From the NCBI GenBank assembly GCA_905178155.1, contig CAJINV010000021.1, positions 912,449 to 976,448 of the forward strand: 64,000 nt of DNA, read 5' to 3'. Shown here piece after piece: positions 1 to 38,083 of this stretch (positions are counted from its first letter, which is position 1; every line of letters starts with the position of its first letter). Both the position numbers and the translations under genes were made by a program. The DNA is from Amoebophrya sp. A120. Lineage: Eukaryota; Protista; Dinoflagellata. A model generated the notes under the pieces. That model was given only the letters and a program-made list of their open reading frames with translations. It ran no database searches and was not told the origin of the DNA.

Positions 1-683
1 ATCTCCTGGCATTCGTTGTATTCAAACTCGTCGTCCTCGTCGGAGGCTGGTTCATGTAGATTGGTGTTAGAAGGAGCGGCAGTTGACTTGGAAATGTTAT
101 TTGCACTTGTTCCGCTCATCTTCGTTGCTGCCTTCTTACTACCCTGCTTGACCTCGCGAAAATCCGTGATGGCTTGCAATCCGAGAATACCGATGTGCAC
201 GTGGTCGTTTTTCGCCCAGTTGAAATTTGTGCTGTGCTTCTTACGCATGGACAGGAACAATTCTTCCTGCAGCGACTTGTAGAAGCTTCCGAGAAAGCGG
301 CTGTCGAACTCGAGGTCGGCCACGTGGTCCCAGTCGTCGGGCCCCTGCGCCTCTGCACTGCCTTGGTTGATGTAGTCAAAACTCTTCGGGGCGAGCACAA
401 ACTTCGCGAAGGTGTGGTTTCGCGCACTACCGGTTGTCGTCTTCACGAAAAACAGAGACCACAACTGGTTCTTGCCATGGACGTCGCCGCACTTTCCGAA
501 CGCTTTTGGCTTGATGGCGACGGTCCGCTCCTGGTGGTGCTGACAGCAGTTTTCCTCTGATGTGCGCGCCGACACCCACAACGCTTTCCGCAAAATATCC
601 TTGTCCTGTTTTTTGGATTTGCCGCGGACACTGTCGGGCGTCATGTCCGATGTCGTGTGGAGAAGCTGCAGGAAGTCGGCCAT
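1..683 (-). CDS. Hypothetical protein, 3' end runs off the window
   Basis: Frame from ATG at 683 (MADFLQLLHTTSDMTPDS...DEDDEFEYNECQE) stays open to position 1; in-frame TGA just upstream; absent from the ORF track because it has no stop in the window. Confidence 0.6.
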   Translation of the reverse strand, partial: MADFLQLLHTTSDMTPDSVRGKSKKQDKDILRKALWVSARTSEENCCQHHQERTVAIKPKAFGKCGDVHGKNQLWSLFFVKTTTGSARNHTFAKFVLAPKSFDYINQGSAEAQGPDDWDHVADLEFDSRFLGSFYKSLQEELFLSMRKKHSTNFNWAKNDHVHIGILGLQAITDFREVKQGSKKAATKMSGTSANNISKSTAAPSNTNLHEPASDEDDEFEYNECQE

Positions 684-1232: not shown

Positions 1233-4200
1233 CTACAGAAACCCCGGCTGCACGGTTGGTTCCTGATTGAACAATATTCTCATGCACTTGCACCACTGTG
1301 GGGACAGTCCTTTCCTCTTCATACTGGCCTCGTCCATGAACTTGGTGATGCACTTTGTGTAGTGCCCGTACACCGTGATCTCCGCCAAGTGTCGCACGTC
1401 CACGCGCCCGGAGTCTAGCAGAATCACCGCACTATACTGGAACTTGCCGTTGACCGCCTGTTCGGGTTTGGGATTTTTTGAACTTTGATCATGTTCGAGC
1501 CCCTCCATGGAAGAGTAGACCAAGTGCTCCTGCGCGAATTCCACGATCACGTTCACGGTTGCAGAGTCCAGCACCTTCTGTCGGTTGTTGTTATCCCTTG
1601 TTTCGCTCGGGCGGATCAGGGCCGAGCTGGACTGGACCACACGACAGGGGGATTCGTGGAAGGGGAGGTCGCAGTATGACAGTGCACAATTCCCGCCCCC
1701 ACCTCATGTGTCATGCAAAATCCCAAATCCAGTCCTCACTGCCTCGTGGCACTGTTTGCATGACTGAATAAATTTCGAAAGGAGCCCAAACAGTACTACA
1801 GCAAGTGCATAGATTTGTCATGCACAGGCTCCAGGGTCGCTGGCGCCTGTATTGCTGTTCATGCAATACAAATGAGGGGAAGGGGGAGTTGTGCACTGTC
1901 ATACGCATATTTCGTCGACGTTCTCCACGTCGTCCTCCGGTTTCAGGGTGCGCAGCAAGGTATCCACTCAAGAAGTACTATCGCACTCGTAGTAATTATC
2001 GCAGTCATGCATTATAAATCCCCTTCTTGAGGTGCATCCGCATCACAAATCCTGTTTCTCAATCTCATGCTGAAGAAGTTTGTCATGCGGTTGCCACTAA
2101 CTAGTACGGTAATAAACTTTTGCATTTCATACACGGACCGCGGCATGTCCCCGATCTGGACCTGCCGGCGTTTGTAGGCGTGGTACCCGCCTCGATACTG
2201 CGTAATCTTGTCCGCGATCGCGGTGCAGAACTCGCGCTGCAGCTTCGCGGGCCACTCGAAGTGCAGAATGCTCTCGAAGCTCCACTCGGTCGGGACCTGG
2301 TTGTCCGCGGTGAGGTACTGGTATCTTTGTTCTACTTTAGGAGTTATAGTAGTTTCTACTGCTCCTGTGGCGCTTGCCGCTGCGCCGGGCGACTTTTTGC
2401 CTGACGTTATGACGGAATACAAAACGTCGTAAATATGGTGGGGCGACAGAGGTTTCTCCGCCGCGTAGGTGGCCAAGTTTTGCTCTAAAACAGCGCCCAG
2501 ATGTTGAGGAACGACTTCGACGCCATTTGGTGCTGTTGAACCAGCTGCAGGAGGGGTCGTGCTGGGAGCACTAGCACCAATTTTCTGGTCCTTCCCGAGC
2601 TTGACCACCAGGGGTGGATTGCGGTGGTGAAAGGCCTGGAGTTCCAAAAACGGCGACACCGGGGGGATGCGGCCGTGGTCGGAGCACAGGATCAGGGACA
2701 AGTTTGGGTGGCGCAGGAAGAGCTCGCGGAAAAAATCGCGAAAAAACGTATCCATGTTGTTCACCACGGGGGCGCCGGGGCGGTACTTCGGGTGCAGCAT
2801 GGTGTGTCCCTCGTCGAAATAGGCCACGGCAAAGGCCTTTTCGTCCTTGAAGACGTCGTAGAAATCCAGGAGGTCTTCAAGTAACAGCTTGGAAACTTGA
2901 TGCTCCGACTCCAGCTCTATCGAAGGGTCTTGGATCGTGGAAGACGGCCCGGTGCGCCGTCCTTGTTTTCCAACGCCTTTTGTATTTTTGCCAAAAGAAG
3001 ACGAAGTAGATCCAGCTGTAGTTCCTTTTCCGTCGTCGTCCGGTGGATCTACAACTCCACCTGTAGTCGCTCCAGCTATTATTGTTCCGGGCCGCACGGT
3101 GCTGTCGGTTTCAGCGATTTCTTTTTCTTTCAGAAGGGTTTTCAGGCCCAGCGACTCCTGCACGTTTTCTTGGCCGCCGCCAAAGTAGTAGCTCGCGCCC
3201 GTTTCCATCGGCGCGACATGGATCAGGCGCTCGCCCGTCACGCGATCAAAACAAACGCTGTACCCGTTTTCGGTGCGACATTCCAAACCTTCCGGAACCA
3301 CGCCGGCGTCCAGCTGCTTGGCGAGCTGCTCGCCCTCCTTCTCCTGGTCGCTCCACGCGTTCACGATGGTGTTGGCCGGTTTGGATGTTGCGGGGAGATG
3401 TTGAACTTGAATCCCGGAGGAGGTTATTACACTTGCACTGCTTGACTCTGCTTCGAAGATTTCCGACGGAGCAAGTGTCGCTGCAGTACCATCGTTCCCG
3501 TGGTCAACATCTTCCCCTCGGCCTTTGTTTTCCACAATAGCTGCTGAGCTACTTGTGCCAGTTCTGATCTCTGCTCCATCAGTCCTCCTTATTCGCAACT
3601 CCGTACTGCTGCTGAGGAATTGCCGACCCTCTGGCGCACCTTGGACCTTCTCCCCGGGCTTCAGCCCCAGCTTGTCCGCGTCCGGACGCTGCCCGTGGCC
3701 CCAGCGCTTGAAACTGCGCAACCGCACCGCCGTGCCGTTTTGCAGCGTCGCGTTGAAGGCCGGAGACAACACTTGCGTGGCCCGCCCCGTGCTGCACCAC
3801 CCTTTCACCGGCGACCACGTGCGCGCGGCGTACTGGCTCTGCAGCTCGGCGAAATGCATCCAGTAGCTGAGGCAGTAGCACTTCTGGAACCGCGTGTGCA
3901 GGCTGCAGTCGCAGCCGGCGAAGGTGCGAAAGCCCTCCTGCTGCGCGACGCTCAGGATGTGCTTCTCCTTGTCCGTCCACACGTCGCGGTCGCGCCATAT
4001 AGAGTTCTCAACCGTCACACTCTCAACTGTTACATGAGTTTGTGATGCACGAACAGCAAAGGTTAAATCGGGTAGCTTGCAGCTCTCGCATCACAAATAT
4101 GGCGCAGATTATCAGCCTGTTTAGCACTTGGGGGATTTGTCATGCGAAGTAGCTTGATCGTGTGGCAGCTGGTAGCAATTTTGCATGGCAAATCGTGTAA

Positions 4201-5958
4201 CAGTTGAGAGTGTAACGCTTGAGAATCCCATACGCCAAAACTTCTGCCCGGTAATTATTCCGAGTAAAAACATCCCCACCCCAGAGTTGTCATGCAAATT
4301 TGCATGCCAAAAAAGTTTCTCATGCGAAGCCCCATGAGAAGCTTTTTCTAGTCGCGTTTTGGGATTTGTGATGCTAGAAATAGCATGATATGCTAGATCT
4401 GTGATGCTGCTGAACTAGCTAAACAGGACTACACTACGAGGACAAACTTGTCATGCGAGACCACCAAAGTTGGCCGATTTGTCTAGCAGATTTTCCACGT
4501 TGACTCTGGTATGGGGACGTTTTTACTCAGGATAGTAATATTCACGCCGGGGCGGGCGGGGAAGGGTTCGCCGTGCGCCATGGGATACTGATTCAGCGGA
4601 GAATTCGGCTATGCAAGAATACAAATTTTTTGCCGTACACACAAAATGCATCGTACACATTTCAACATCCCCCAATGAATGAGGGAGAGCATGTTGGCAT
4701 TTGGTGTACGCTACTACAAAAACCTCGAAGGTAGTGCATTTGTAAGTACAATAAGAATAAATTGAAACTGTGTACAACTATTACGGCATAATGAATTTCC
4801 TGTCCATATCGGCCCGACGACGTTGAAGTTGTCGAAAATTGTAGCATTCAAGTACTGCGACAGGTACAGCATCGTCTTCGGCAGGCTGCGAAGCACTTCA
4901 CGAAAGCTGAGCATATCGAGAATGATGAGAAGGACCTTTTTCTTTGTGTCTTCACCGTCCTCTGCGGTCTCTGCTGCGGTCGTTTTACTAGCGGATGTCG
5001 AGGGGTTCTCAATTTCTCCTCTTTCCTGTTTAGTATCTTCCAGTGCACCTTCACCTCCGGAAGCGGAGGGCAGTCGCAGTGCGTGTGGTTCATCAAGATC
5101 TGCAGGAAGAACTTCCGAGGAGGTACTACTTCTAGAACTTGTGGCGCTAGCAGTACTGACCCCTTCTTTACGTTTACTTTTTTCTCCGCCAAGAGAAGCT
5201 GCATCCCGAAGAACAAAATCAGCCGCGCCTCCTGAGGCCCGTTTCCCCCGTGCGTTGACCAATTTGCTCGGATGCGGCATGCCCCCCTTCTCCGCGACGC
5301 AGTTTTTCACGGCGTCGGGGATGTTTTTCTCCTCGGTAAACAGGCTCTCCATCGCGCACCCGTCCCGACGATTGGCGATCTCCTTGTGGTTCAGCGCCTC
5401 CACCAGTTCGTCCATCCTCCGGAACTCTTTCACCGCTTTCAATTTCTGTCGGTGGGCCCGGTCGTCGCGGCAGAAGCCCCAGGGGTGGTCGAAAAAGAAC
5501 GGGTCCGCGACGTCCTCATTGGTCCAGCTCTCGTGCTCCTCGAAAAACAACGTGACTTCATCAAGTGACCCCGATGCGGTGGTTATTGTGGTGTTTTTCT
5601 GCATGAGGGCTTCGTCCTCGGCCCGCTCTCGCTGTGTAACTTCTGGTCGTGCAGTTTCTGTTTCTGGTAACGCAGATTCTGTCTTCCTATCCTCCTCGTT
5701 GTAAATTTCGCCCTTTGCAGATGCCTCGTCCTGTATTTCTGGCAGCATTATTCTATGCCCAACTGGAATGTCCATGCGCAGACTTGTGGCTGCCATGAGG
5801 CGGTTCCGTCTCTTCAATTCCTCCAATCCCTGCCTCCGAAGCGCGCCTCCGCTTACCGAGCGAAAGCTGCTCGATAGTTGTACACAGGTGAGGCAAGCAA
5901 CAACAAAATAGAGACCACGGAGAGCGGCCAACATTGAGAACGGACGCAGACGCAACAT
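1233..5958 (-). CDS. DUF229 / alkaline-phosphatase-superfamily protein with signal peptide; 6 exons
   Basis: Removing 5 introner elements joins the ORFs in frame: VLLIILDMLSFREVLRSLPKT...FNVVGP|NSPLNQYPM...GVNI|TGQKFW|RDRDVW...LILCSDHG...HHRNPPLVV; motifs resemble DUF229; hydrophobic N-terminus. Confidence 0.7.
1675..1903. mobile_element. Introner element, family A (TIR tatga(c/g)agtgcacaa(c/t)tccc)
   Basis: TAT...ATA ends; direct repeat cgcag/cgcat; removal gives DEIC|DLPF in frame. Confidence 0.9.
1961..2131. mobile_element. Introner element, family B (TIR tat..tgcaaaagtatcg), degenerate
   Basis: Direct repeat caagg/cacgg; removal keeps frame PRS|(V/L)LRTLKP. Confidence 0.8.
3998..4232. 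mobile_element. Introner element, family C (TIR tatgg.gttctcaa.cgttacactctcaactgttac)
   Basis: About 35-bp TIR; perfect direct repeat cgcca; 235 bp. Confidence 0.92.
4256..4534. mobile_element. Introner element, family D (TIR tatcctgagtaaaaacgtcccc)
   Basis: Perfect direct repeat gtaat; frame restored GVNI|TGQK. Confidence 0.92.
4610..4808. mobile_element. Introner element, family E, degenerate TIR
   Basis: TAT...ATA ends; perfect direct repeat tcggc; restores VVGP|NSPL. Confidence 0.82.
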
Positions 5959-6509
5959 CTTTAATTTCAAGAGTCGACTCGTAAAAATTTCAATTATGAA
6001 GGCTTAGGCTGCAGGTGCAGCCAATTTTTGCTCTTGCTCTCACACTGCGCTGAGCGTGACTTCTTCTCTCGTGGAATGGTAAAAGAAATATGGCCGCTGG
6101 ACGTCTCGGTCTCCTGTTTGACTTTGACCAAAAAGGAAAAAAACAGAGCGCATAGAAAGACCTTCTTCTTGTTACACTCCTCGATGGATGTTGAACAAAA
6201 GTGCATGTATTGATAAACGAAAGGCCACGACCCTCCTGCTTGGATCTAGGTTCAACATCAACAGATGGAAACATCATATGAGCAATTGCGTGAGCGTGCG
6301 ATTGTCGTGGCGAAAAATGTGGTCGTGGTGCACAGAAATGTTGATCTTGATAGCGAATCCACATCATGTTTGTTGCAAAGAGAAAAAAAAAACGTGTCGC
6401 GGTTATTTAGAACTCGTCAGCGGGCCGCGTCCGAGTCGGTTCGTCTTAGCAGTTGTGTGTGACTGACTACATAAAGTACTTTCAATGTTCAAACCGCTAC
6501 CGGGATCTT

Positions 6510-9113
6510 CTACTGACCAACATCATGATCATCTCCCAGGATTAGCCTAGCTCTATTGAGACAATTCTGCAAGCGTTGGATATTTTTCTCCTCGCTCATG
6601 AATTCGGGAATCGGACCGCTCCAGACTGGATGTTGAACGGTTTCCTTCCTTTCGGCCGCGTTGTCCCCATCAACATTGTTCGAAGATCTACTAGTATTCC
6701 ACCCCTTGTACCACCGGACGATCGCCATGGCCTCGTTTTTGTTGACCAGCACCCAATTTTCCGGGAAACTGTAGAACTTCTTCGGGGGCGGTGCAAGATC
6801 CTCCTCCGTTATCGGCGCATCGAAGAGGTCAAAGGCCGTGTCATGCTCAAGGTCGCTGTCTTCAGCATGCACAGCATTCTCACGTTCGACGCACTTCTGC
6901 TCCGTGGTGGCAGGGGCCACGACGTGTTCATCTTCTCCCGCCACAACGAAACTCGCAGGTGTAGTACCTGAGTTCTTGGTCTCCGCTGTCAACGTTTTAT
7001 CTTCCTCGTCAACTTCTGCAAGAATTTTTGCGTCCCCGCTTGTACAACTAGTTTTTTTATTCCCTTCCAACGTTAATACTTTCATCAAACACTGCCCTAG
7101 CACTTCCGGATCTACGGGCACGAGCTGCAACTGCTCGCCTTTCGTGTCTTGCAGGCAGCCCCGTCTTTTGTACACGTCGTAGAGCAGAATCTCCGCGTGT
7201 TCGCAGCTCACCCAGTGCGCCTCGAAGGGGAGCATCAGTTTGGCCTTTTCCAAGTACCGCCGCCACGTTTTGGTTTTCAGCGGCTCCCGTTCGGCCTGCA
7301 GCGGCTGGCCCGACAATTCCGCGAGCACGAAGCTCGCCAGGGTGTAGCCGGCGCACGCGGGGACCGGGGCGGTCACCGGAAGCGTCCGCACCCGAAAGTT
7401 TTCCAGGGGCGCAAAGTCCTTGGCGTTCTCCGGGGTCTGGTGCTCCTTCAGCGGCATCAGACTGCGCCCGGTGCGCTCCACGCTGTAGCAGACCATAATG
7501 TCGTCGAGGTCGACGATGTGGTTGAGTGCAGGAGGAACAGGAGAGGGGGAAGACGCGGCGGCTCCGGAAGTAGTTGTATCTGTCTTCAATATTACCCCAT
7601 CTTCGCCTCCTACGTTCGTCGTGGGACCAAGATCTTCGTGTTGCTCCAGTGGTCCTCGAAGCAGTCCGGCTTGTTTATGATCCGCCGTACGATAATTATC
7701 CTCGGAACAAGTACTTGGTGTACTGTCGCAATTCTTTTCATCGACGTTCTTCTTGGCTGATTCGACGATTTCATGATCCTCATCTACACGACAAAATATA
7801 GAGTCCTTCGACACGGAACAAGACATGTTGACCACAGCTTTACTGTTCCTCAAACGCAGCTCCTGTCGCACCCGCTTCGCAAGCTCGCATTCCACCGTGT
7901 CCGTCAAGGAGCCCAGGCGCAACTTCGTCGGGTCTGCCTTCGCAGCCATCCCTGCGGAGACCACCAAGGGGATCTGGTGCAGACTGCAGAATTGGATCAG
8001 GTCGCATTTCGTCGGCAAATTGTCAATGCAATCCACAACGAAATCCGGCTTAGCTGTAGAGTTGAGGTTCTGCAGGTCCTCGTGGGGACGAGAGGTGGAC
8101 GTCGAGATGTAATTTTTAGCACGACCGTGGTCCTCCGAAACAACTACATCAAATTCGTCCAGAAGGAGCTCTTCCGCTCGGTCCAAGCTGAACAGCGCCT
8201 GCCTGGCGTCCACTTGGCAGAACGGGTTTGCTTTTAAAATGTAGTCCTTGACCGCAAACACCTTCTCCTTCCCGACGTCCTCCCAGGCGCTGCAGGCGTG
8301 GCGGTTCAGACTCGACAGGGAGACCATGTCGAAGTCAATGATGCGGATGCGGCCGACGCCGGACCGAGCCAGCGCCATGGCACAGTGGCTCCCGACCCCA
8401 CCAACCCCAACCACGACGGCGAACCCGTTCTGCACCTGCTTCTGGCCTTCTTCTCCGAAAAACTGGAGGTTGCGCACCAGCATCTCCTGTTGGATTTTCC
8501 GCCCGGTTGAGCCAGATGGAAGTTTCGTTTTCGTTCGGGATTGTGATAATTGGGACGAGGATGATGATGATGATGGAAAAGCGTCCTCCACTTGTAGTTC
8601 ATGAGGTCGACGTTCATCTTGGAGCTCCTTCTCATCTTCTTCAACCACGATCTTCTGAACAAGCGCCTGATCAACATGTCGCGCCGTGTTTAATATTTCT
8701 CCAGTAGTTGCGGTTCGTTCTTTTGCGGGTCTTTTTCTTTCATCTGCTTCTGCGCAGCTGGTTTCTTGGTCTTCTTGATCAACATGATCCTGAAAACAAG
8801 CAGCCTTCGTCAGAATGTTGATAAACTGAAGGAACCGACGGTAGTAGTAGCAGAGACCACGCTCCTTACTTTGAAGTACTTCTAGTCCGGCAGTGCAGCT
8901 GGTGCTCGTAGTTGATTTTTTGGAATTGTTGCTCTTATTGTTCCGTGAGACGACGTTCCTTTCGAACTGAACCGCCCGGCTTATCGCTCGCGCAGCTACG
9001 AGGCACACTATCAGGGTCTCAACTGATCTCCACGCCACTAGAGGTAGAGCAGTAGTTGCCACCGGTGGCTCCGGCACGGGCGATTGTGTCGTCCAAAAGT
9101 AGAGACCAAACAT
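6510..9113 (-). CDS. tcdA: ThiF/E1-like tRNA threonylcarbamoyladenosine dehydratase (TcdA/TCD1-like), single exon
   Basis: RNLQFFGEEGQ...VVVGVGGVGSH...LARSGVGRIRIIDFDMVSLSSLNRH...FVVDCIDN...GMAAKADPT; N-terminal hydrophobic segment as in yeast TCD1/2. Confidence 0.85.
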   Translation of the reverse strand: MFGLYFWTTQSPVPEPPVATTALPLVAWRSVETLIVCLVAARAISRAVQFERNVVSRNNKSNNSKKSTTSTSCTAGLEVLQSKERGLCYYYRRFLQFINILTKAACFQDHVDQEDQETSCAEADERKRPAKERTATTGEILNTARHVDQALVQKIVVEEDEKELQDERRPHELQVEDAFPSSSSSSSQLSQSRTKTKLPSGSTGRKIQQEMLVRNLQFFGEEGQKQVQNGFAVVVGVGGVGSHCAMALARSGVGRIRIIDFDMVSLSSLNRHACSAWEDVGKEKVFAVKDYILKANPFCQVDARQALFSLDRAEELLLDEFDVVVSEDHGRAKNYISTSTSRPHEDLQNLNSTAKPDFVVDCIDNLPTKCDLIQFCSLHQIPLVVSAGMAAKADPTKLRLGSLTDTVECELAKRVRQELRLRNSKAVVNMSCSVSKDSIFCRVDEDHEIVESAKKNVDEKNCDSTPSTCSEDNYRTADHKQAGLLRGPLEQHEDLGPTTNVGGEDGVILKTDTTTSGAAASSPSPVPPALNHIVDLDDIMVCYSVERTGRSLMPLKEHQTPENAKDFAPLENFRVRTLPVTAPVPACAGYTLASFVLAELSGQPLQAEREPLKTKTWRRYLEKAKLMLPFEAHWVSCEHAEILLYDVYKRRGCLQDTKGEQLQLVPVDPEVLGQCLMKVLTLEGNKKTSCTSGDAKILAEVDEEDKTLTAETKNSGTTPASFVVAGEDEHVVAPATTEQKCVERENAVHAEDSDLEHDTAFDLFDAPITEEDLAPPPKKFYSFPENWVLVNKNEAMAIVRWYKGWNTSRSSNNVDGDNAAERKETVQHPVWSGPIPEFMSEEKNIQRLQNCLNRARLILGDDHDVGQ

Positions 9114-9989
9114 GATTCTTTTTCTGTGTAGTTTCAAATTTTTCGACGGAGTACTACAGAAGAAAGAGTAATTTATTCCTGATCTTCCGAGCAGGGGCTG
9201 TACTAAACTACGCTCCTACGGAACCATGAAAATCTCTAAAAAGTGTGGTCCTGGTGTTCGTCAAATTCATGTAAAAAAAAGATTTCTGTCTTCGAAAATG
9301 AGTCGTAAGAACTCTCCAAGAGCAAACACTCCTTCGTGCGGTTTCTCTACCGACGAAGGATAATGAGAGTGAGATCGAGGATCATCTGCTATTTTCATCA
9401 TTCCGAAGAAAGAACATAAACAATTTCTGGAGCATTCGAGAGTAGACTCTTCTTGTTCGTCAACAATGAAATGTTGTTTATTGGACCCAAGAAGAACTCG
9501 CTTTTGTCGAAAAGTTTGGATCTATTGAGCCGACTACAACTCTTCAACGAAAAATATCTGCGTTCTTTGATCAGATTTCAATTGTGAAAAATGCTGGAGA
9601 TCAACAGACACATCATCAAAAGTATGCACTTACACGACCACGGGTATTTCATTAAATTTTGCTTTCTTTCTTGCTTTCTGTTCATGCCCGGGCATGGCAT
9701 CAATTTCAATTGTTCCGAGGCCCTACAGTCCAACTCCGTGCTTTCACCAAAATTTTGCTCTTCCGTGCTCTTCAGCAAAATTTTCGGTGCTCCTCAGCAA
9801 AATTTTCGGACGGAAAGCGCCGCGCATGTGACACTACACCACAGCAGGCCGCGAGTTCTTGTATATGTACAACTAGAGCTATTGGAAGGGGACTAAGTAG
9901 TACCTTGAAGATTGCACCCGCGACATAGCTACAGGAATTTGAAGTCTGCTGTGATCGGTTGATTATATGCGGAGAACTATACTAGAGCT

Positions 9990-12900
9990 TCACCGCCCAG
10001 CTCGAACCCTGGCCTCCGCGATCCTGGTCAGCCTTTCATTGCCGGAAAACAGGGAGTCCGATCCCAAGGATGGTTCGCAGTCCACGGGCTCTCCGAAGAC
10101 TTTCCTCGGCAAAGAGATTGCTCGCAAGTACTGCCAGCCAAATCGGACGTTGAAAGCCAGCCACAAACTGCACAGAAACGTGAAGGGCAGATTATGGCAC
10201 TGGATCTGCTCCAGTTGCTCAGACCAGTAGTAGCCAATCACATTTTCCAAGCAGATCAAAACCACCGTGAACAAACAGCACTCGGCGTCCCAACTAAAAA
10301 CGTCCCCACCTACCCAGAGCAAAGATGGGGATTTTCTTGCAACACAAACTTAGAAGTTTTGGGCGTCAAGCATGACACGTAGCAGTCCGTAGTGTAGTAG
10401 TGCAGGTATTAGCAAGGACAGCCGCATTACCATCTGCTTATCCTGTATACAGCATTGCAAATCCCACCACACGGTCGTTGGAAATAAGTACTTATCATGG
10501 AGATGCGCATCACAAACGTTCCTGTCATTGCAAATCAGTATGTTGACAACTCTGGGCGGAGGTGAGGACGCTTTTGCAGAGGATAATCGGCATAGAAGTC
10601 CAGTTTGGTCGCGTAGGCAAGGCGCGGCAACTTGTCCCCGATGACCAGTTTGAACGCGAGCTATCCACAGGAAATTTCCCGCACACGAGCACAACGTACA
10701 AATGCTGTCTCTGCATCACAGAACATGCCTCCAATCTCAGTCAGAACGACAGGTTGCGTTGGATACTTCATCAAGTTCTTAGTTTGTTATGCATAATTTT
10801 GTACCTGTTGTACGGAAAATTTGATGTATTTCATACCACTACGGTTAAAAGCATGGTAAAAACAATGGACAGCCGGCCCGGTAAATCTTGAACGGGTAGA
10901 ATGAAGCTCGTGAAGGCACAACAGGTCAAGCCGAGCAGCGGAAACAGCACCGACCGCGTGAAGTGCTGGTGCTTGCGCGATATGATCAAGGTCGATTCAA
11001 ACTTCTGTATGCAGTGCAAAAGTTCTTCTTGTATCGCACTCGTAGTAAAAATTGCAATTTAATGCATCACAAACCTCGACTCTTAGGCGGGTTAGGTAAA
11101 TCTATCAGCATATACAATTTTCAGTTCTATATTTCTTTTCAGGAATTTCTACCACATACGATTTATTACTTTTGCGATGCATACTCTGCTTTTCGAACCG
11201 GTTTCCAAACACTTGCGCCCCCGGCGGATGCAGGTTCCACTCGTCAATCAAGCTCTCCCCCATCATTTTCTGGTTGATCCGATATCCACAGGAAAAGACC
11301 TATCGATCTCCATCCATTTTTTGCATGACAAAGAGCACAGGCAGGTTTGAGGCATGCTTTATTGCGAGACAAATTCGATGCTGGTGGGGAACAACAATCA
11401 AGGGGTTTGGTCTTTTTTGTGGATCATATCCGGTTCCGCTTTCCGACGAAATACTTTCCGTAGTCCGGGTTCGCGGCCACACCGGCTATCCTATGTAAAA
11501 CCATCGCACTCGTAGTAGTTGCAGTCATGCATTACAAATTTTTTACTCAAGGTAGATCCACATTACACATTTGGTTTCTCATGCTGAGGGAACAAAAATT
11601 TGTCATGCATTTATACGAGTACGATACTTTTGCAATGCATACCGGCCCCCCACATGCGAATCTGTATCGTTAGGCTTTGGACGTCGCAGGGAAACTCGCG
11701 GAGCTGAAACGATTCGGTAAAGGTGCCGGTAAAAAAACCGGACTTCCGCAGTGTGCCGGGAGGATTTTTCACAGCGCCGTCGCGCCGGTACATTACCTAG
11801 GGGAGTGTGACTACATATGAATTTTGGACTGTCCTTCCCATATGGCATAATCCATTAACAATACCCAGCCACCCAATGTCGTCGTGGTACTCTCAAGCAT
11901 TAAATGAATGTGAATCCAACTGAGACGACGAATAAACAGTAACAAGCCGTACTAGAGGTGTGGAGAACTGTGCTGTCAGTACCTTCTCCGCCGGCCGACC
12001 GCCCTCCGCCTTCTCCCTGTCGCCGTCGTGGTCCAATTGCAACATGGGCCCAAACGCCGTCTCTGTCAGTTCGACGCAGTTCGCGAAAAACAGAACCGGC
12101 CGCGTGTTGGCGAACACGAACTCATCGGATCTATCAATGTAGGGTCCGTGTGCGAATGCAGGGTCAAACCAGTCCACGGTCAAGTATGGAACTCTCAAGC
12201 GTTACATTCTCAACTGTTACATGATTTGTCATGCAATTTTACCACCAAGACCGCCGTGCTTACGCTCCTTCGCATGGCAAATCTACGAAGGGCTGGACAG
12301 CATCTAAATCTGTGCCAAATCTGTAATGCAAAAGGCGCAATCTTCCCCCTTTCACTTTTGCCGTTTTTGCATGACAAATCTAGGTAACAGTTGAGAATGT
12401 AACATTTGAGAACGCCATATCAAGTTGATGCGCGCCTTGAACGTGTTTTCCAGCGGGTTCACCGCCAGCAGCGCGACCCACTCCAGGTGGAGGGTGACCG
12501 CATTCGGAAATTTTGGGAAGTGCCCGTGATTGGCGAAGAAACGAAATTGTGGCAGGTCCGTGGAGTCGAAGGGGTACTTGATATACGGGCTTTCGTTTGA
12601 TTCCTTTTCTACTTCCTCTTGTTCACGAGGTGCAAGTTTGTGTTTGACAAAAACGCCATTATCGACTACATTGCTTCCGCTTCGAATTAGCGCATCTTTC
12701 TCTGACTCTGTTGTATCTGGCCGCGCGATCCACGAGACTGCGATGTTGCAGTTGCCTGAACAAGCGGCAGTGGTTGCCTCTGATTCTACGGGAGAAGCTT
12801 TCTTCGCGTCGGGTTGGCTAGTCGATAATGTTGTTTCTTGTGCGACGACAGCGATGCTGTCGAACACACCACAACCCTGTCGAGGGTCATCGTGGCCCTT

Positions 12901-13260
12901 CACTTGTTTCTTCACAACCAGTGTCTCATCGTCCTGTTTGATGTATTCTTTATCAGGCCTTTTTATTTCACCGCCAGAAGCAGAAGCAGGGCCTAGAAAA
13001 GCAGGCTCTCTATCAACATCCTCTTTCTTTCCTTTTGTTTTAGTGCCACCAGAAGAATTTTTCCTCGGGAGCAGCGATACCGTGTGACCCACCGACGCCG
13101 GTCGCTGCAAGTCACAAACTGACAGATCATGGCCCAGCAGAATCAGTTGCGTCGTCAAATGAGCGTCATGTTGCTCATCGGTTGTGCTCACACGACCTGA
13201 ACCACGACCTGGTTCGTCGCAGATAACGGCCCCACAACTGTCGGTATACTGTTTTGACAT
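9990..13260 (-). CDS. Pentameric ligand-gated ion channel subunit (Pro-loop, Cys-less); 8 exons
   Basis: Spliced product has VNPLENTFKARINL|TVDW, PVLFFAN, FQLREFPCDVQSL, then M1-M3 (SRKHQHFTRSVLFPLLGL...GRLSIVFTMLLTVV|LAFKLVIGDKLPRLAYATKLDFY) and M4; 6 element-type introns plus GT-AG intron 11797-11952. Confidence 0.82.
10286..10585. mobile_element. Introner element, family D
   Basis: aaaaacgtccccacc...ggtgaggacgctttt..ggata; direct repeat ctcgg/atcgg; left terminus decayed. Confidence 0.8.
10662..10835. mobile_element. Introner element, family E, now bounded by GT-AG
   Basis: tatccacaggaaattt...aaaatttgatgtatttcata; direct repeat lost; minus strand reads gtg|GTATGA...GATAG|ctc in frame. 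Confidence 0.75.
11008..11183. mobile_element. Introner element, family B
   Basis: tatgcagtgcaaaagt...acttttgcgatgcata; direct repeat ttctg/ctctg. Confidence 0.85.
11283..11428. mobile_element. Introner element, family F (TIR tatccacaggaaaagacc)
   Basis: Direct repeat tccga/tccgg; restores KRNR|INQK. Confidence 0.82.
11487..11641. mobile_element. Introner element, family B
   Basis: Perfect direct repeat ccggc; restores MWGAG|VAAN. Confidence 0.9.
12185..12419. mobile_element. Introner element, family C, opposite orientation to the 3998 and 36280 copies
   Basis: Perfect direct repeat tcaag; 235 bp. Confidence 0.92.
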
Positions 13261-13833
13261 ACTGTTTGGACTACTTCTGCGTGTCGTGCCACGACCACCA
13301 AGAGATCAACGTAATTGTAGTAGGAGCTAGATGAACTAGGTCTAGGGCTACTTAGCACGAAGATCTTGATGGCGACTTACATGCTCCACTAGTACCAACA
13401 AGAGGAAGACGATCATACCATTCTTCACCATATCAAGATCCTTTTTCCGAAGATATTTTCACGACCGACAACATCATACAACGAATACGAATACGAATCC
13501 GGGGAACTACTTGCAAAGAAAACGAATCGGTAGAAAGTGTGAAGATATGTTGATAAAGCAAGGTTCTAAAAGTTGTATTAAACACGATAAAAACAAGTAC
13601 GTGTTCCTGCACATCCTACGAACACAAAACCGTTCTCTGACAGCATCAGCACGAGCGGAGGTGCATCGCCAGGACTCTGATTCCTCCAGATCGTGTTCGG
13701 TTTGTACATCTGTTTTGGCTCCTAGTACAAGGAGCGGATGTGGCTGTAGATGAAGCTGTAGACACAGCGACAGCACCAATCGCAATGATCGCAATACTTA
13801 TAGACCAAAACGACCGGACAACTACAGCATGTC

Positions 13834-17800: not shown

Positions 17801-19797
17801 GAAATATCAACCGGCACTGCTGGCGTTCTTGCCGTCGTTTGTTCCTCCCCAAATAAATGACTATCTGCTTGATGTTGTGCGACGTAATTGAAGTCTTCTG
17901 TGCTGGTCCTCGCGCTGGTCAACATTTTGACATTTCTATTCGTAACATCCGCTTGTTGCACGTGCGACGGCTGCACATCATGTTGGACCTCCTCTTCTAA
18001 GAAAAATTCCCGTGAGCAGAGGTTGGACTGTGTCTGTGTCTGTGCTCGCCGTTGATGTTCCTCTTATGAGAGTGCACAACTCCCCCTCCCCCTCATTTGC
18101 ATGGCATAAGCAGCAACGCAAGTGCTGGCATAAATGCAGCTTTTGCATGACAAATTCGCTACCGATTCTAGTGCTGTTTCGGCTTCCGAAATCTGTCATG
18201 CAAGATGTGCCAAAATAAAGAAAAGAGTAGATTTGGTATTTCGCATGACAAATGAGGGGGAGGGGGAGTTGTGCATTGCCATACCTCCCCTGCTCGTCCC
18301 ACCACGACGACATCGTCGACACACTGGCAGAGACACAGGTTATCAAATGTAAAAATGTCTGGGCCTGGAACACTGCAACTTGTCATGCTAAATCTGAACG
18401 ATGCAAAAATCTGTGTTGCGTGAGTACTCAAAGCTGTCAGCTTTTGACCAAGTTGAGATGGAGTTTCTCATGCAGAAAAGGCATGATAGAGGCCTGAAAG
18501 AATCTGTCACGCTAGGTCTCGCATTCCAGACCTCATGGGTCATGGAAAACTTGCATGACAAGTCTTGCAACGTTCCAGACCCAGACGCTTTTGCATTTGA
18601 TAGAGGTAATTCTGCAACAGAAAAGGGTCCGTTTTGTAGATCGTCCGGATGACCAGGTAGTTGCACGCAAACCACGCATACCAGGCCACGGCGAGCCCCG
18701 GGTGGACGATGAAACTCAACGCCGACGAACTCGCCGGCGCCGGGTCGCTGGTACTATAATAACTGCTCGCGGGCGGTCCGCAGGTGTCCTGGAAATGCTT
18801 CTTGGCAGAGGCGTACTGGAGAAATTCGGGGGCCCACAGTGTAATGGCCAACATCGTCAGCCAGGATGCAAGAAAATGCGCGGTCCAGAGAAGGGCCACG
18901 AAGACGGCGCTCCAGTTGATCCTTTTATTTCGATGTTGTTGTGGTACGGCCATATCCACAGTTTGGTTGTTGATGTACCCATTATTTTTTCTATGATCCA
19001 CCTCATTGCGCCCCCTGCTGGTGGTGACTCCTTGATGTTGATGTTCTTCGCGACCACACGTCGACTTATCCACCTTTAAGATTCGGGCAGAAGTCGACGT
19101 CGTGTGGGAAACGCAGCGCAGAATTTGCACCAGCGCGAGCACGCCGATGAGGGAGATTTGCGGAAAAATCGGCAACGCCGGCCAGGTCTTTGAGGTAGTC
19201 CCGTCCTTTATCCTGAGTAAAAACGTCCCCCCCCCGAGTTGTCATGTAAATCTGCATGGTAAAAATGCTTCTCATGCGGAGCCCCATGAGAGGCATTTTC
19301 TATTCGTGCTTCGCAATTTGTCATGCTCCAATCGGCATGCTGTGCTGCCTCTGTGATGCTGCTGAACTTGCTAAACAGGATCACACTGCGAGGCCAAATT
19401 TGTCATGCAGAACTCCCAAAACTTGGGAACTTGTGTTGCAGACTTCCCATCTTGACTATGGTGTGGGCATGCTTTTACAGATGATATCCTTTTCGAACAG
19501 GTTCGCGCACTCGTACAGACGACCCTGCCACCGGTGCTCGAAGAGGAAAACAACGAGGCAGGTCGCCGCGAAAACCGTGCCAAAAAAGTGACTCAGCGTC
19601 ACACGCATGTTGATGCTGGAAGTTTTTCGTATGCTACAACGATGTCCTGCTGGAGGAAAAATTCTTCGAAAAAGAATCTGCTTTGGTAAAACTATATATT
19701 CTTGATCTTCTAATATGTCCAGTGCCTTGGTCGGCAACTTGGAAAGCAAAGGGAAGCTGCTGCAGCTAGTACCTACATGATCATTTTTGGACCTCAT
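14776..19797 (-). CDS. Large multi-pass membrane protein of unknown function; 4 exons; start codon uncertain (19797 or 19608)
   Basis: Three element removals join the ORFs in frame (LFEKD|GTTSK, LQNYL|CLCQC, RAGE|EHQRR); several hydrophobic helices separated by low-complexity loops. Confidence 0.65.
18065..18283. mobile_element. Introner element, family A
   Basis: Long TIR; direct repeat cctct/cctcc. Confidence 0.9.
18341..18602. mobile_element. Introner element, family G (TIR tatcaaatgtaaaaatgtctgggtctggaa)
   Basis: About 30-bp TIR; direct repeat caggt/gaggt. Confidence 0.9.
19209..19486. mobile_element. Introner element, family D
   Basis: Perfect direct repeat tcctt; body similar to 4256-4534. 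Confidence 0.9.
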
Positions 19798-21069
19798 TAG
19801 ATGGCCAGAACGACGATCGACAAGCGGTATCGACAAAAGAAAACGACTATGAAAAGAAAATGAGGATGGCCACCGATCATGGGAGTCATGATATGGTCAT
19901 GGAGCTACACGACGAGTGGAGGGGACGTTCTTTGTTGATCTTCATGGTCAAAAAATGACAAGATATCATGGCACAACAATGGAGACCACTCGTCTTCCCG
20001 TAATGGCCACATCTTTTTGTTGCTAGAATAGTAAGGTAAAGACCAGATCATTTTGTCGTGTGCCTTCTGGTGTATCGGAATGAAAAAAACTGATGCTCGT
20101 CTTTCAGCAGCGTCCCTTTTTTTTCAAATGATCCACCAATCACGGGAAGCTGAAGGCTGCTGAGTGTAAACACATAGGTCAACAAGTACATTCGCGGAAC
20201 TCGAATTCATCACAGCTTTCCTGTCATCTTGCGAAATCATGTTACTGATTCGGTAAACCGTCTCTACAAACATGACCCACCACCAGGAGCTAGAATACTT
20301 CCTGTTGTTGCCTTGTTGTAGTTGGTAGAAGAGCAATAAACCTCGCAGATCGAAGAGAACAACCCTTGATGTACACCGAAACTACACCTCCGGGCGGACA
20401 TGCACGACTGATGTCATGTCTGCATGATATCAAGCAGACTGCATGTTCGCACATCGGCTTTAGCTTATTTTGTGCACAGTAGCTTCAGCCACTTCAACAC
20501 GTGATAGTACGAGTGTACAAGAAGCATCTTCGCGTAAAAATAACAATGCGCACTGGCGTGTTTCCATTTCAGCAAAGTCATCGAGGGGTCCTCGGCGCCG
20601 GTGAATGGTTCTTCATGTGCTTGAAGTTGCAGAACTACTTACAACTGGACAATGCACTACACGACCGCACGTAAGTACTGCTAGCAAAATATCGATAAAG
20701 GGTCATCAACTGAATACAGATAGAACCACACAAAGGGTCGAAGAAGTAGGGGCGTTTTCATTTCGTACAGCGGACATCTTCAATCATAGTCATACCAACG
20801 TTCATTATCATTTGCAAAAATAATTGCAGAAGTAGAGTGTAAAAATTATATATCTGTGGGCACAACGCGACCCAAGGATGCTTCCCAAGGGAGCCAGAAC
20901 TACCTCCACCTGAAGTCTTCTTGCAGCTCTTCACGCTCGTCCTGATGTGCATCACCAGGACGGAACAAATATATGTTCATCTTCAAGTTCGGGAGCGTAT
21001 TGTTCGCGAAGCGACGAAACAGTGCTGCTGCTGGTGATCCTCTTCATAACTGACAGGACACAGGCATTC

Positions 21070-24000
21070 TTAGTGGTGCTCGTCCCCCGGATCGTCATTT
21101 TTCAAAACCGCCACCTCAGCCGCAGAATTAGTACTATTCCCGAACAACTCATCGACGGTAGGCTTCGCGCCGGGCCGCGCCGGGAACGTGTCCGCGTGAC
21201 CCTCCACCAGCACCGGCGGAGAAAGCAACGCCGCCCCCGCGAGTGGCGGGTCCTGGGTAGTACTAAGGAGACCGGAGTTTAGCGGCGAGTAGCCGAATTT
21301 CTGCAACATGGCGGACAGAACCAATCGCAGCTCGCTCGGATTTTCGACCCGGTATCGCGCTAGCGTCTTGCCTTGGCCCACCTGAAATGAAGAGATTTTT
21401 TCGGCATGATAGACACCCATTGAATTTTTTTGCGGCAGGCTTTTGGTTGTCGAAATATAAATAAATGCAAGACGGTAATAAATTTACGATAGGAAATCGA
21501 TATATTCTTTTTTGGAGGGAGTGTTTATTTCTGCGAAGATAATCTCTTTACACTTGACTGCCTCAGCTATATATAATTCGAGGAAATGGAAACCCATAGA
21601 AAGGGAAAGCTACACGTCAAACGTCCTTTCACCGTACCTTGATCGACAAGAGGTGCGTTTTCCGGGAGAACAGGGCCTCGTCGTCCGCTATGAAATGCAA
21701 AAGCATCGTACTAGTATAAATCGCATGACAAATTTCCTCAGCATTAGAAATAAAATTTGCAATGCAGGTTTGCCTTAGGAAAGAGATTTGTAATGCATGA
21801 CTGCGATGACTACGAGTACGATACTTTTGCACAGGATATCCGCCAGAGCGAACATGGTCTCGTCCGTGACGTTATGAATTGCAAAAGCATCGTACTAGTA
21901 GCAATTGCATGACAAATTAGCCCAGCAATACAAATTGAATTTGTAATGCTCATTCCCCTTGAGAAAAAGATTTGTCATGCATAAATGCGATTACTACGAG
22001 TACGATACTTTTGCAATGCATATACGTCGTCCCCAGCGCAGAAGACCAGCGTGCGGCAGGACTCCCCGAACTCGTGCAGGAACCGTAAAATCAGGTCCCG
22101 CATTGCCCCGCCCTTAGTCGGGCCCTGCGGCCCGAAGACCTCGATCATCTTGTTGCCCCGCGAAACCCGCGCCATGGGGTACTGGAGGGAAAACTCCAGC
22201 AGTTGCAGCAACTGGTCCACGCCCTCCTGCCCCTCCTCCGGCCGGCACGCGCGGTAGTGCCAGACCAGGGATTTGTATGACTGTGCAAAACTGCCCCTCC
22301 CCCTCATTTGTATGGCATGGACAGCAATACAAGCGTCAGCAAGAATGCAGGTTTTGCATGACAAATCTGTGCAGGAGTGCAGTGCTATTTGGACGGCCAC
22401 AACTTGTGATGCAAACAGTGCTTCAAGGCTTAGCGTGAATTTGGTAATTCGCATCACAAATGAGGGGGAGGGAGAGTTGTGCACTGTCATAACTTGGTCT
22501 TTTCCTCCACAAAGGATCCGTGCACGTTCGCGAGCTTTTATCACAAGAACAAGTGTTAACGTTAATACAGTTTTTCTTTTTCACAGATTGCAGCCATGCG
22601 TCACAAATTTAGCATAGTATGCATGCTATGCATGACAAATTTGGGCACGCTTTGTGATGCCTTGCCGCATCACAAATTTCATAAACGTTAACATTTTTTC
22701 CTGTGATAGCTTTTTCATCTCGTTCATCACCGCCGACCGCCAGTCCTGCTGGTGGTCAAAAAGTTGCGACGAGGTATATCCTGTGCAAAAGTATCGTACT
22801 CGTATAATCTTGCATATACAAATCTTGTTCCTAAGGCAAATCTACATTACAAATTTCATTTCTCATGCTGAGGAAATTTGGAATGCATTTATACGAGTAC
22901 GATACTTTTGCAATGCATAAGGCACTGCCACTGGTCATTTCTTGCTGTGAAGATGATACTACAGCTGGCCCTCCGCCGGGTGCATTCGTGGAAGAGGAGC
23001 CCAGCATCGTCGTGGTGGACAACATCGACCCGCTCGTGGTCCCACCGCCCGAGGGCGAGGGAATTTGCTGCTGCAGGTGCTGCATCGAAGAAGTTGCTGC
23101 TCCGGAAGCTGCAACTGTGTTTTGTGTCGTGCCCGCACCAGCACCACCAGAGGCGGTCGAAATAGCATTACTGCCCATAGCTGTGGTAGTACTGGTGTGC
23201 AGGTTCAACCCGCCGGATGCCGGCGAGGGAGAGTTCATCGTCCCGAGCGATGTCGCATGGTCCGTCGCGGTGGAGACTTGGCTCAGTGTCGGCACGAGCA
23301 AGTTGGTACTACTACTTCCACCGCTGGCTCCTGCTGCACCAACTACCGCGCCAGTCGTCGTGCCAAGCAGGTTCAAATTATCCAGCAGCGCGTCGGCGGC
23401 CATCGTTGGGCCGCCGCCAGTCGCCATGGACGAGGTGACGTCGCTGAAGCTGGTGCCCTAGTATCCCGTGCAAATCAAGCATCGCACTTAGTAGAAATCG
23501 CATGACAAACTCCTTCATAGCAACATCACAAATTGACTTTGTAAAAATGCGGGTTCACCTTAGGCTTAGCCTTCGGAATGAGATTTGTGTTGCACAATTG
23601 AAATTGTGTTGCGCGATTGCAGACTTGTGTTGCACGATTGCCATACAAGTGCGATACTTTTGCAATCCATATACCCCCGCCGGTCGAGGTCGTCCCCGCG
23701 ATGGTCCACTCGGTTTCGTATGCATGGCGGATCTGGTAACCGTGTTCCGCAACTAGCGTGAGGCCCTGGTGCTGCTTCCCCATGTAGTTATCCAAAAACC
23801 CGGCGTCGCGCCCGCTGATGATGACCACCTTCAACTTTTCTTTCAGCGAATGCGAAAGTAAATGCAGCAGGTTATTCAAGTTGTCCGTCGGGACCGCCGC
23901 GACCGGGTCGTCCTCAAACTCTCGCAACGTCCCGTCGTAATCTAAGAACATCAAAATTTTGTCGTAGTTCGCAAGCTTCAGGCATTTCTGTGGCGTGGTC

Positions 24001-26388
24001 GAGGGCATCAACATCGAGGAAGTAGAAGGTCCTCCTGCGTTTAATATCTCTTTTTCTTCCTGCTGCAGCAAAGATGGTGGTGGTGATGATGAAACTTGCT
24101 GAATCAGCGTCCCCGTCGTGCTGTGCTGCGAAGTGCTGGTCTTCGAGGAGGCCATATTTTTGTGATGGTTTGACGCAAAAGTCTCTTGATGCTCCAGGTG
24201 GATGTTTCCATCTTTCTTGTTCCCCTGTTCAACCTCGTGCTGCTGGTCCTCATGCGCCATGTCTTGGTCTACGCTTGCAGCAGGCACTGTTCTTCCTGGA
24301 TTACTAGGCTCCTGCGTAAGAGTACCAGCACTAGCACCAGCATCTTCTCCAAGAGAAGTTCTTTTTGTTATATTGCTAGTACACAGTGGCGACTGCAGTG
24401 CGAGACCGCCTCCGAGGATCACATTCCCGGCAGCGACATCCATGTTGACGGCCTCCTTCGTGATGACCTCGCCATCCTTATTTGGATTTGCAGCTCCACC
24501 TGGAAGATTTGTTTCTCCTCCTGCTCCGAGTGGAGGTCCGCCAGATGGTGTGGCCGGTCGTGGGGGGACGTGAGTTACACCAGCGCCGTCGTGGTCGACG
24601 ACCAACGGTTTATTATTTTTCCTTGTGGGAGGATCGTATTGCAGGAGCTTCGGAGTGGTCCCAGTCATTTCGCTTGTTGCTCCTTCGCCCTCGGAAGCTG
24701 CTTGTCCTCTTCGGAAAAGAACATCATCATCATGGTGCTGGTGGTCTTCAGGATCAACTTCAACTGGATTCATTCCAGCATCGGGCACCACATCCACCTC
24801 GTCGTCATGATCGACATCACCTTGCGGTGGCAAACTGCTCCCTCCCGGACTAGTTGGCGCACCGCTGCCCCGAAATTGGTGCCGGTGCTCCCAATGGATC
24901 GGAAACAGCGCATCGAAGTCGACGACGTGCTCTACCAGATCTGACGTAACGAGCGGCACAATCCCGGCCAGCGCACTTTCGGTTGGCGCAACGCGGACGA
25001 GGCAGGGAGATGGTGAACGCGTACGGTCGGAGCCTGTACGGATAGAATAATTGATTTTCATTTTTCAATAGACTTGCGCTGTGGACTGTAATGTTTATGT
25101 ATGGCCCAAAAAAATGTTCGTACAACGCGCACTGATCATTGAAATAGTACAACCGCGTAGAAAGAAGAGAACAACAACCTGCTCACACCGAAAAAAAAAA
25201 GTTCGAGTTTTTATAACTAAGTTACCTCCCCCTCCCCCACTCGCGGAGTGATCTTCAGATCCCCGCTATGAGAGTGCACAACTCCCCCTCCCCCTCCTTT
25301 GTAATGCAACATACCAAGAAGCGAGCCCACCCTTTGCCTCTTGGCACTTTTTGCATGACTAGTTCGGGCAGGAGCCCAAAAAGCACTACACTCCTGTGCA
25401 AATTTGTGATGCAAAATCTGCATTCTCGATGACGCTTGTAATTGCCGTTCTTCGTGCTATACAAATGAGGGGGAGGCGGGGGAGTTGTGCACTGTCATAC
25501 CCGCTCGAGCGTCCGCGTTAGCATCCCGGTCACGTGACTGACGGCCCGACTCGGCGACTGCGACGGCGTCGGTAGCGCCACTACCGGAGTCGGCATAGCC
25601 ATCGCCCCGGCGAACAGATCGACGCAGTGTGGCTCGCTGTCCCGCATAGAAGTGCAACTCGTCCCGTCGAGAAGCGGCACCGCCTGCGCGCCCGGCGTAC
25701 TGCTCAGTTGCGCAGCCAGCCCCCCGGTCGCCATGGACGTAGGTTGTAGGTGGACTTGGGAAGTAGAAGAAATAAACTGGTGGTCGATATTACTAAACAT
25801 CGGGGGACCGCCAGCACCTCCTGCTACTGCTCCGCCAGCGGCTGAAGACGGGATCTGATAGTTGTGATGCTGTTGCTCAAAATGAAGCATGTTGCCTGTC
25901 GCGTCGAACTTCTTCAGCTGGTGTTCAAGCAGTATGAGAGTGCACAATTCTTTTCCCCTCATTTGTCATGCAAAACCCCAAATTCAAGCGCTTCCCACCT
26001 CTGGCACTGTTTGCATGACAGGTTCGGGAGGGAGCTGCCCAATAAACACTACTAAGTACACTGGAAGTGCATGAGTTTGTCATGCACAGGCTTCACGTGT
26101 GGTCGTGGTGTTTGTAATTGTATTGCTGTTCATGCAATATTACAAATGAGGGGGAAGTAGGTTCTTGTGCACTTTCGTAAGCAGCATGCCGGAACCAGAT
26201 GCGTTGTTCCAGGTGGACGAGAGCCCGGATGGGTCGTCTTCGTCCACCGAAAGCCCGCTGAGCGAGCCCGGTGAGTCGTCGACCGGCAACTCGATCCCGC
26301 CAATACAGAAGTCACCCTCTTCCTCAAAGAACTGGAGTTCCTCGGAGGCCGAGCGCCGCTCCGACGGTAAAATGGCTGCGGCCGCCAT
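21070..26388 (-). CDS. Trehalose-6-phosphate phosphatase (HAD-IIB) with long low-complexity N-terminus; 11 exons
   Basis: MFLDYDGTL, VVIISGRD, LVAEHG, GSFVEEKTK|SLVWHYR, GNKMIEV, TKGGA, FCAGDDV|TDETMF, SIK|VG..TLARYRV; 8 element introns plus GT-AG introns 21382-21637 and 25034-25225. Confidence 0.88.
21689..21838. mobile_element. Introner element, family B
   Basis: Perfect direct repeat tccgc. Confidence 0.92.
21873..22022. mobile_element. Introner element, family B
   Basis: Direct repeat gacgt/tacgt; splits the HAD motif GDDVTD. Confidence 0.92.
22276..22491. mobile_element. Introner element, family A
   Basis: Direct repeat atttg/acttg. Confidence 0.9.
22539..22708. mobile_element. Introner element, family H (TIR tatcacaggaaaaaa.tgttaacgtt)
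   Basis: Perfect direct repeat gcttt. Confidence 0.88.
22777..22919. mobile_element. Introner element, family B
   Basis: Direct repeat aggta/aggca. Confidence 0.9.
23462..23671. mobile_element. Introner element, family B, direct repeat decayed
   Basis: tatcccgtgcaaa...gcgatacttttgcaatccata; flanks not a clean repeat; junction approximate. Confidence 0.75.
25267..25499. mobile_element. Introner element, family A
   Basis: Perfect direct repeat cccgc. Confidence 0.92.
25933..26179. mobile_element. Introner element, family A
   Basis: Perfect direct repeat agcag; right end is gta instead of ata. Confidence 0.88.
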
Positions 26389-37900: not shown

Positions 37901-38083
37901 CGCATATCTATGCATACACGTACATTTGCATCAGTAGACATGACGATGACTTCTATTAGCAGGAGAATGATCCTGAACGACAGACGAAAAAAACGGCATT
38001 GGCGTAAGAGGTACCTCATCGTTGAGAATGAGCATTTCTCCCGTAATTACGGGGCCCTGGGGCGCTGCAGGTGCTGCTGCCAT
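34994..38083 (-). CDS. IFT57: Intraflagellar transport protein 57 (HIPPI); 9 exons
   Basis: LQLLDY..FC, QFKYFAQLCAWL, YDDPQT, PQKLKQGYGE, WALELERVGPKLK, KEWRAHL, TDTAPIVKIKDAFQKLRAETRQIEVKIGVVGHTLMQAKL; 4 GT-AG introns (35503-35679, 35842-36155, 37210-37396, 37768-38014) plus 4 elements. Confidence 0.92.
35204..35404. mobile_element. Introner element, family H-like
   Basis: tatcaaacaaaaaaa...tttcctgtgata; direct repeat agtcg/attcg. Confidence 0.78.
36280..36515. mobile_element. Introner element, family C
   Basis: Perfect direct repeat cgatg; 236 bp. Confidence 0.92.
36576..36746. mobile_element. Introner element, family F-like, with about 50-bp inverted arms
   Basis: caggtcatatttgtaatgcaaaaataaata / tatttatttttgcattacaaatatgacctg; perfect direct repeat cgcat. 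Confidence 0.9.
36811..37132. mobile_element. Introner element, family G-like, degenerate
   Basis: tatgcattgaaaatgtgtct...gacacatttgccgttgata; perfect direct repeat cctct. Confidence 0.8.

Follow-up and report, generated by a model that had tools for sequence, protein, structure and literature searches.

The closest described relatives of the element analysed here are the introner elements of Amoebophrya strain A120, described in 2021 by Farhat et al. (PMC7789003). According to that paper they have TAT-starting inverted ends with seven variable bases and an A run, direct repeats of 3-5 nt, variable splice dinucleotides and a length of ~240 nt. For A120, 29,850 repeated introns of introner type were reported, RNA-supported non-canonical introns were published, and ~65% of the RNA-supported introns are non-canonical (Table S4, PMC7789003). 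U1 snRNA is described as missing from this strain and minor snRNAs as absent (PMC7789003), and A120 introners have been assigned to diverse transposons (PMC12130899). In the text, legends and tables of PMC7789003 the cut register is not fixed and orientation independence is not reported; the register may be shown in the figures (Fig. 3, S19-S25).

Similar features are found in other lineages. Nonconventional introns of euglenids share with the A120 elements terminal pairing, repeat-like junctions, the lack of GT-AG, coexistence with ordinary introns and a probable MITE origin, and circular excised introns have been reported for them (PMC11282704, PMC11170887); they differ in their CAG/CTG at +4..6/-8..-6 and their pyrimidine-purine junctions, both of which are absent in A120 elements. 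In animals, pairing of terminal inverted repeats triggers excision from the mRNA by SOS splicing, which is RTCB-dependent, apparently spliceosome-independent and cuts near the repeat termini (PMC12779559). Paired terminal repeats are also present in the element studied here. However, SOS splicing is an imprecise process that leaves indels behind (PMC12779559), whereas the A120 elements appear to be removed exactly from conserved coding sequence: such imprecision was not seen in 14 homologue-checked elements, for which minor imprecise isoforms are possible. Our literature search, mostly without subscription journals, returned no paper resolving the removal mechanism and none linking Amoebophrya to SOS splicing.

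Structure of the element and its host gene

We analysed a 64-kb stretch of DNA, hereafter the window. The host gene (1233..5958, minus strand, as are the other features of this gene given below) codes for P0001, a 1195-aa DUF229 (PF02995) protein with the source name Amoebophrya sp. A120, to which its large exon matches at 100%, and all five of its introns are TAT..ATA elements. The element of interest (4256..4534; 279 bp, non-coding) interrupts this gene, as judged by register and orthologue analysis. Read on either strand, it starts with TAT and ends with ATA, and a perfect 5-bp direct repeat, likely a target-site duplication, lies on both sides (upstream copy 4535..4539, downstream copy 4251..4255). 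The sense 5' inverted-repeat arm (4503..4534) consists of TAT, seven variable bases and an A run, and the sense 3' arm (4256..4287) is complementary to it at 27 of its 32 bases; over 43 nt the arms are 77% complementary. The sense RNA is predicted to form a long closing stem (fold z = -6.64), with 0 of 100 shuffles folding as well. An exon of 70 nt (4535..4604) lies upstream, and downstream a micro-exon of 18 nt (4233..4250) separates the element from the next one. The sister elements are located at 4610..4808 (perfect repeat, weak arms), 3998..4232 (perfect repeat; family in the opposite orientation at 12185-12419), 1961..2131 (mismatch at repeat position 3) and 1675..1903 (synonymous mismatch at repeat position 1).

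A second copy of the 4256-4534 family, at 19209..19486 (minus strand; 78.6% over 234 interior nt), is flanked by a different 5-bp repeat, as expected of a target-duplicating transposon. Being an insertion with inverted-repeat ends and a 5-bp direct repeat, 4256-4534 is likely a non-autonomous, MITE-like DNA transposon. MITEs, IS3EU/GingerRoot and IS481EU share with it a short, non-coding body, inverted ends and site duplication, and their TA..TA and TNT..AYA termini match (PMC10045372); the duplication is usually 6 bp in IS3EU and ~4, 15 or 25 bp in IS481EU (PMC10045372), against 5 bp here. Membership of IS3EU/GingerRoot was considered and rejected, since the termini fit while the duplication is 5 and not 6 bp, and with no transposase in hand we make no superfamily assignment.

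The comparison with A120 introners revealed no class-level difference. The strain is the same (by the source names of P0001, P0004 and P0011), the inverted ends are paired, the 5-bp repeat falls within 3-5 nt, TAT is followed by seven variable bases and an A run (at least three A), and the element is repeated elsewhere with another flanking repeat (19209-19486). Thus, 4256-4534 fits as a member of the published introner class and is a rediscovery of something already known; the novelty implied by the original prediction, which had described the element from its sequence, was too high for a class described in 2021 (PMC7789003).

Exact removal and collinearity with the orthologue

Exact removal takes out the element plus one repeat copy, 284 nt, and is possible in six registers with the boundaries AT..TA, TT..AA, TA..AT, AC..TT, CT..TA and TA..AC. 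These are the pairs listed in the original prediction, and we could confirm them with coordinates and with the 5-bp repeat at 4251-4255/4535-4539. GT-AG, GC-AG and AT-AC are all missing among these six registers. The prediction had claimed their absence from any frame-restoring register, which holds for exact registers only, as inexact removal nearby offers eight open, frame-restoring pairs, four GT-AG (donor at -11 or +16, acceptor at +12 or +15) and four GC-AG. In terms of intron types, the GT/GC-AG ends of U2-type introns are not provided by the exact registers, and the cryptic pairs break orthologue collinearity; AT-AC or GT-AG ends of the U12 type are found in no exact register either.

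Retention of 4256-4534 would cause a frameshift and an early stop, giving 423 aa instead of 1195. Removing the five TAT..ATA elements exactly from 5958-1233 yields P0001 letter for letter, and the deposited A120 gene model has exact removal at 4256-4534. The A25 orthologue of P0001 is P0002, with DUF229 in both proteins, and the junction of 4256-4534 sits in a 173-residue ungapped block in which 156 of 173 residues are identical between the two. Against this orthologue, exact removal produced 0 gap columns and a score of 510, whereas the cryptic GT/GC-AG pairs, of which six out of eight were tested, each produced 2-17 gap columns and scores of 400-468. A non-GT-AG removal route is therefore supported, because, of the tested options, only exact removal preserves the collinearity of the protein with its A25 counterpart. 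Cryptic GT-AG use at 4256-4534 was rejected, as the tested pairs introduce gaps into the conserved block.

RNA and DNA contigs

We also examined assembled contigs from sequencing runs, taking run X3 as RNA by guess and treating run X1 as DNA because its depth is even (41-50). Between its pieces 1284-1669 and 2132-3776, record 10 of the putative RNA run X3 has 52 letters, which is the exon size predicted if both intervening sister elements were exactly removed. In record 11 of the same run a piece stops at 4809, the last base before element 4610-4808. In the putative DNA run X1, record 6 is unbroken from 4506 to 11532 over the sense 5' end of 4256-4534 at a depth of 42, and record 3 is unbroken from 1985 to 4049 over two sister-element ends. 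The original prediction had called for a search of genomic reads for precise empty sites; in our hands the displayed contigs of this one putative DNA run, which drop rare variants and come from a possible source of the window itself, showed no sign of precise removal from DNA. Contigs of X1 continue without a break over element ends, at the depth of a single copy, and this disfavours abundant empty sites. The summed contig depth of the 4256-4534 family reached ~50,000 against ~42 in X1, a figure that is not a copy number. In addition, a metagenome scan with P0001 gave 82 pattern matches, 0 of them confirmed, and no wild empty-site allele. Ciliate internal eliminated sequences interrupt coding sequence, are bounded by short repeats and are exactly removed from DNA; 4256-4534 differs from them in that its sense 5' end stays in the putative DNA run X1, and ciliate-style DNA excision of this element is unlikely. 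The sister elements, the gene model deposited for A120 and the comparison with A25 make us highly confident that 4256-4534 is removed exactly at the RNA level.

Of two raw-read RNA runs, X9 gave 0 reads in the window and X10 gave reads at 6077-6944 only, where loose poly(T) ends occur near 6277-6286 and one resembling an adaptor at 6696. These reads likely mark the 3' end at which the transcript of the ThiF-family gene 6513-9215 is polyadenylated.

Elements across the window

To delimit the class we scanned the window for TAT/ATA ends with 9/16 or more arm matches and no more than one mismatch in the 5-bp repeat. Forty elements were counted, namely 39 of the 45 hits plus 4610-4808, after six weak or nested hits were dropped (5584-5876, 20466-20850, 38965-39532, 47864-48186, 52384-52750 and 59602-59884). 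Perfect-repeat TAT..ATA segments with at least 9/16 arm matches numbered 25 in the window, compared with a mean of 0.35 and a maximum of 2 in 20 dinucleotide shuffles. A canonical exact register is absent in 33 of the 40 elements, GT-AG being available in 5 and AT-AC in 2. After exact removal 39/40 lie inside minus-strand ORFs of at least 150 aa, and the removal length is not a multiple of three in 30/40. All 14 homologue-checked elements fit exact removal. Element 10662-10835 (minus strand), whose repeat has decayed to 2/5 matches, still obeys the exact length rule against its AT5.2 orthologue, and its sequence suggests that an intact repeat may not be needed for exact removal.

The 40 elements have an arm profile of TAT-S-N6-A-rich. 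Arm positions 3-6 are paired in 20-27 of the 40 and positions 7-15 in 33-39, pairing statistics that the scan criteria bias upward; in this layout a loose patch separates a short stem at TAT/ATA from a firm one. The loose patch could be a recognition feature, or it could merely reflect unequal left and right ends.

Ordinary GT-AG introns are also present nearby, as the original prediction had noted, four of them in the IFT57 gene and one at 11797-11982. The IFT57 gene (34994-38100, minus strand) combines these four with four TAT..ATA elements and is a ready internal control with both intron types in one gene. Its ordinary GT-AG intron 37210-37396 (minus strand) starts with G followed by TATGA and has a terminal duplex of -14.4 kcal/mol; it may be a decayed element turned canonical.

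Several other genes are rich in elements. Gene 10300-13305 (minus strand) has at least five, and near 11641 its A120 model, P0011, departs from the frame of P0012, the AT5.2 orthologue, probably because the gene model is wrong or represents a minor isoform; no Pfam family was found in P0012. A gene with a trehalose-phosphatase domain (21632-25064, minus strand) contains five counted elements, with a 150-nt family in both orientations, and a further arm pair without a matching repeat occurs at 23462-23671. At 39252-43630 (minus strand), exact removal of nine perfect-repeat elements, one of them of 501 bp, opens an ORF of 765 aa. Three clusters of short tandem or inverted repeats (28550-29330, 29470-30080 and 33300-33880) are unrelated to the TAT..ATA arms.

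Placement of the cut

We used mismatched repeats to place the cut, as the original prediction had proposed. Single-mismatch repeats numbered 14, of which seven are synonymous and uninformative at the protein level; three of the seven residue-changing ones were checked. With the mismatch at repeat position 3 (1961-2131), the upstream copy is kept in the deposited protein. At position 4, the Met of the upstream copy is invariant in 7/7 IFT57 sequences. At position 5, the AT5.2 orthologue has a Lys that is encoded by the downstream copy alone, a case that consists of one conservative Lys/Arg difference in one distant orthologue. P0011 is unusable for this last site, since it leaves the orthologue frame before it, and looking for additional homologues at the position-5 mismatch gave only the AT5.2 protein again. 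With one case per position, the probable cut sites are one base ahead of TAT and four bases past ATA.

A cut at -1/+4 would remove exactly one repeat-length whatever the repeat sequence, and would give 4256-4534 a CT..TA boundary. The predicted actual intron, extrapolated from the mismatched repeats at other elements, is then 4252..4535 (284 nt, minus strand, register -1). This register places U at +2 and A at +3, as in an ordinary donor. All nine predominant non-canonical boundary types of A120 have T at +2 (Table S4, PMC7789003), in which aligner bias is possible, and they are consistent with the -1/+4 cut.

Mechanism of removal

The sense strand was also inspected for signals bearing on the mechanism. 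Three families, grouped by us, occur in both orientations within sense transcripts (6 vs 6, 3 vs 4 and 2 vs 1), and the third has both orientations at homologue-checked junctions. In the 40 elements there was no sense-specific pyrimidine tract (0.505 vs 0.491) and no sense-specific YTRAY motif (12 vs 9 of 40). G at the would-be +1 was mildly enriched (18/40 vs 32%, p = 0.063). Terminal duplexes were weak in 2 of the 14 homologue-checked elements (-4.6 and -5.9 kcal/mol), while those of five ordinary introns span -2.8 to -14.4.

We propose, at about an even chance of being right, that a hairpin-guided pathway of cutting and ligation, separate from the GT-AG spliceosome, takes 4256-4534 precisely out of the pre-mRNA. 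The inverted-repeat arms would pair in the pre-mRNA, a nuclease would cut at fixed distances from the base of the TAT/ATA stem, and an RtcB-type ligase would join the exons; such a pathway could resemble SOS splicing, but in a precise version, or the nonconventional route of euglenids. Cleavage and ligation is favoured by the lack of acceptor, tract and branch signals, by function in both orientations and by ancestral introns that are still GT-AG. In this regard, introns at conserved positions are 98.6% canonical in the Amoebophrya strains of the published study (PMC7789003), and two routes therefore fit better than one loosened route. Against cleavage and ligation stand the two weak duplexes, the loose pairing at arm positions 3-6 and the imprecision of SOS splicing; U+2/A+3 together with the mild +1 G enrichment would suit a spliceosome.

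The strongest competing explanation, which we regard as possible at clearly less than an even chance, is a modified major spliceosome in which the hairpin holds the ends together and replaces both U1 and the AG scan, so that only the donor U+2/A+3 is read. In A120, 83/89 spliceosomal proteins and U2, U4, U5 and U6 are reported and U1 snRNA is not (PMC7789003), but the U1 proteins are present as well (Table S6, PMC7789003), so the U1 RNA may be merely divergent. The predicted register gives N-T-A-T starts, in agreement with the T at +2 of all the Table S4 types, a GT-AG exact register exists in 5/40 elements, and 15% of A120 canonical introns are reported to have the same anatomy (PMC7789003). 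Furthermore, non-canonical transposon introns are reported to be spliceosomally removed in Fritillaria (review PMC11282704). On the other hand, a spliceosome would have to work with no AG, pyrimidine-tract or branch-motif bias on the sense strand and tolerate both orientations, the long stem would presumably hide the donor and the branch region, and the ancestral introns have stayed GT-AG (PMC7789003).

Self-splicing, or a transposase-like activity on RNA that is encoded by the elements or hijacked, appears improbable. Many unrelated families share just the terminal TAT..ATA and the arm motif, which a single trans-acting protein could read; however, the interiors of different families are unlike each other and function in either orientation, as would not easily be expected of a ribozyme fold, and no transposase is reported for A120 in PMC7789003. 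Still less credence can be given to the ordinary spliceosome acting at cryptic GT/GC and AG sites close by, an option for which the eight open pairs speak, but which is opposed by the gaps that each of the six tested pairs opens in the conserved block, by the deposited A120 model and by sister elements skipped by exact length in the putative RNA contig. Equally little can be given to DNA-level excision in some life stage, where TA-containing ends and a direct repeat resemble the anatomy of internal eliminated sequences and the counter-evidence is one putative DNA run, yet X1 records 6 and 3 run straight through element ends. The second removal route of the original prediction is accordingly supported as a non-GT-AG route by the A25 collinearity and by the published introns (PMC7789003), whereas its option of DNA-level excision is disfavoured by the X1 contigs.

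Implications

Our analysis adds to the published description the presence of families in both orientations in transcripts and a probable fixed cut derived from mismatched repeats, and these fixed-register and orientation results lead to concrete predictions that are testable on existing RNA-seq. If true, hairpin-guided cleavage and ligation would represent a naturally occurring, precise equivalent of SOS splicing and might be turned into a tool for excising RNA without scars, as programmed by its structure. For Amoebophrya as a whole we suggest tentatively, at somewhat less than an even chance, a second, spliceosome-independent mRNA splicing system, in which precise inverted-repeat-triggered cleavage and RtcB-type ligation at -1/+4, in either orientation, would act at tens of thousands of sites and erase the 5-bp duplication together with the transposon. 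If removal is both exact and spliceosome-independent, this would amount to a genome-wide second splicing system that silences DNA transposon insertions.
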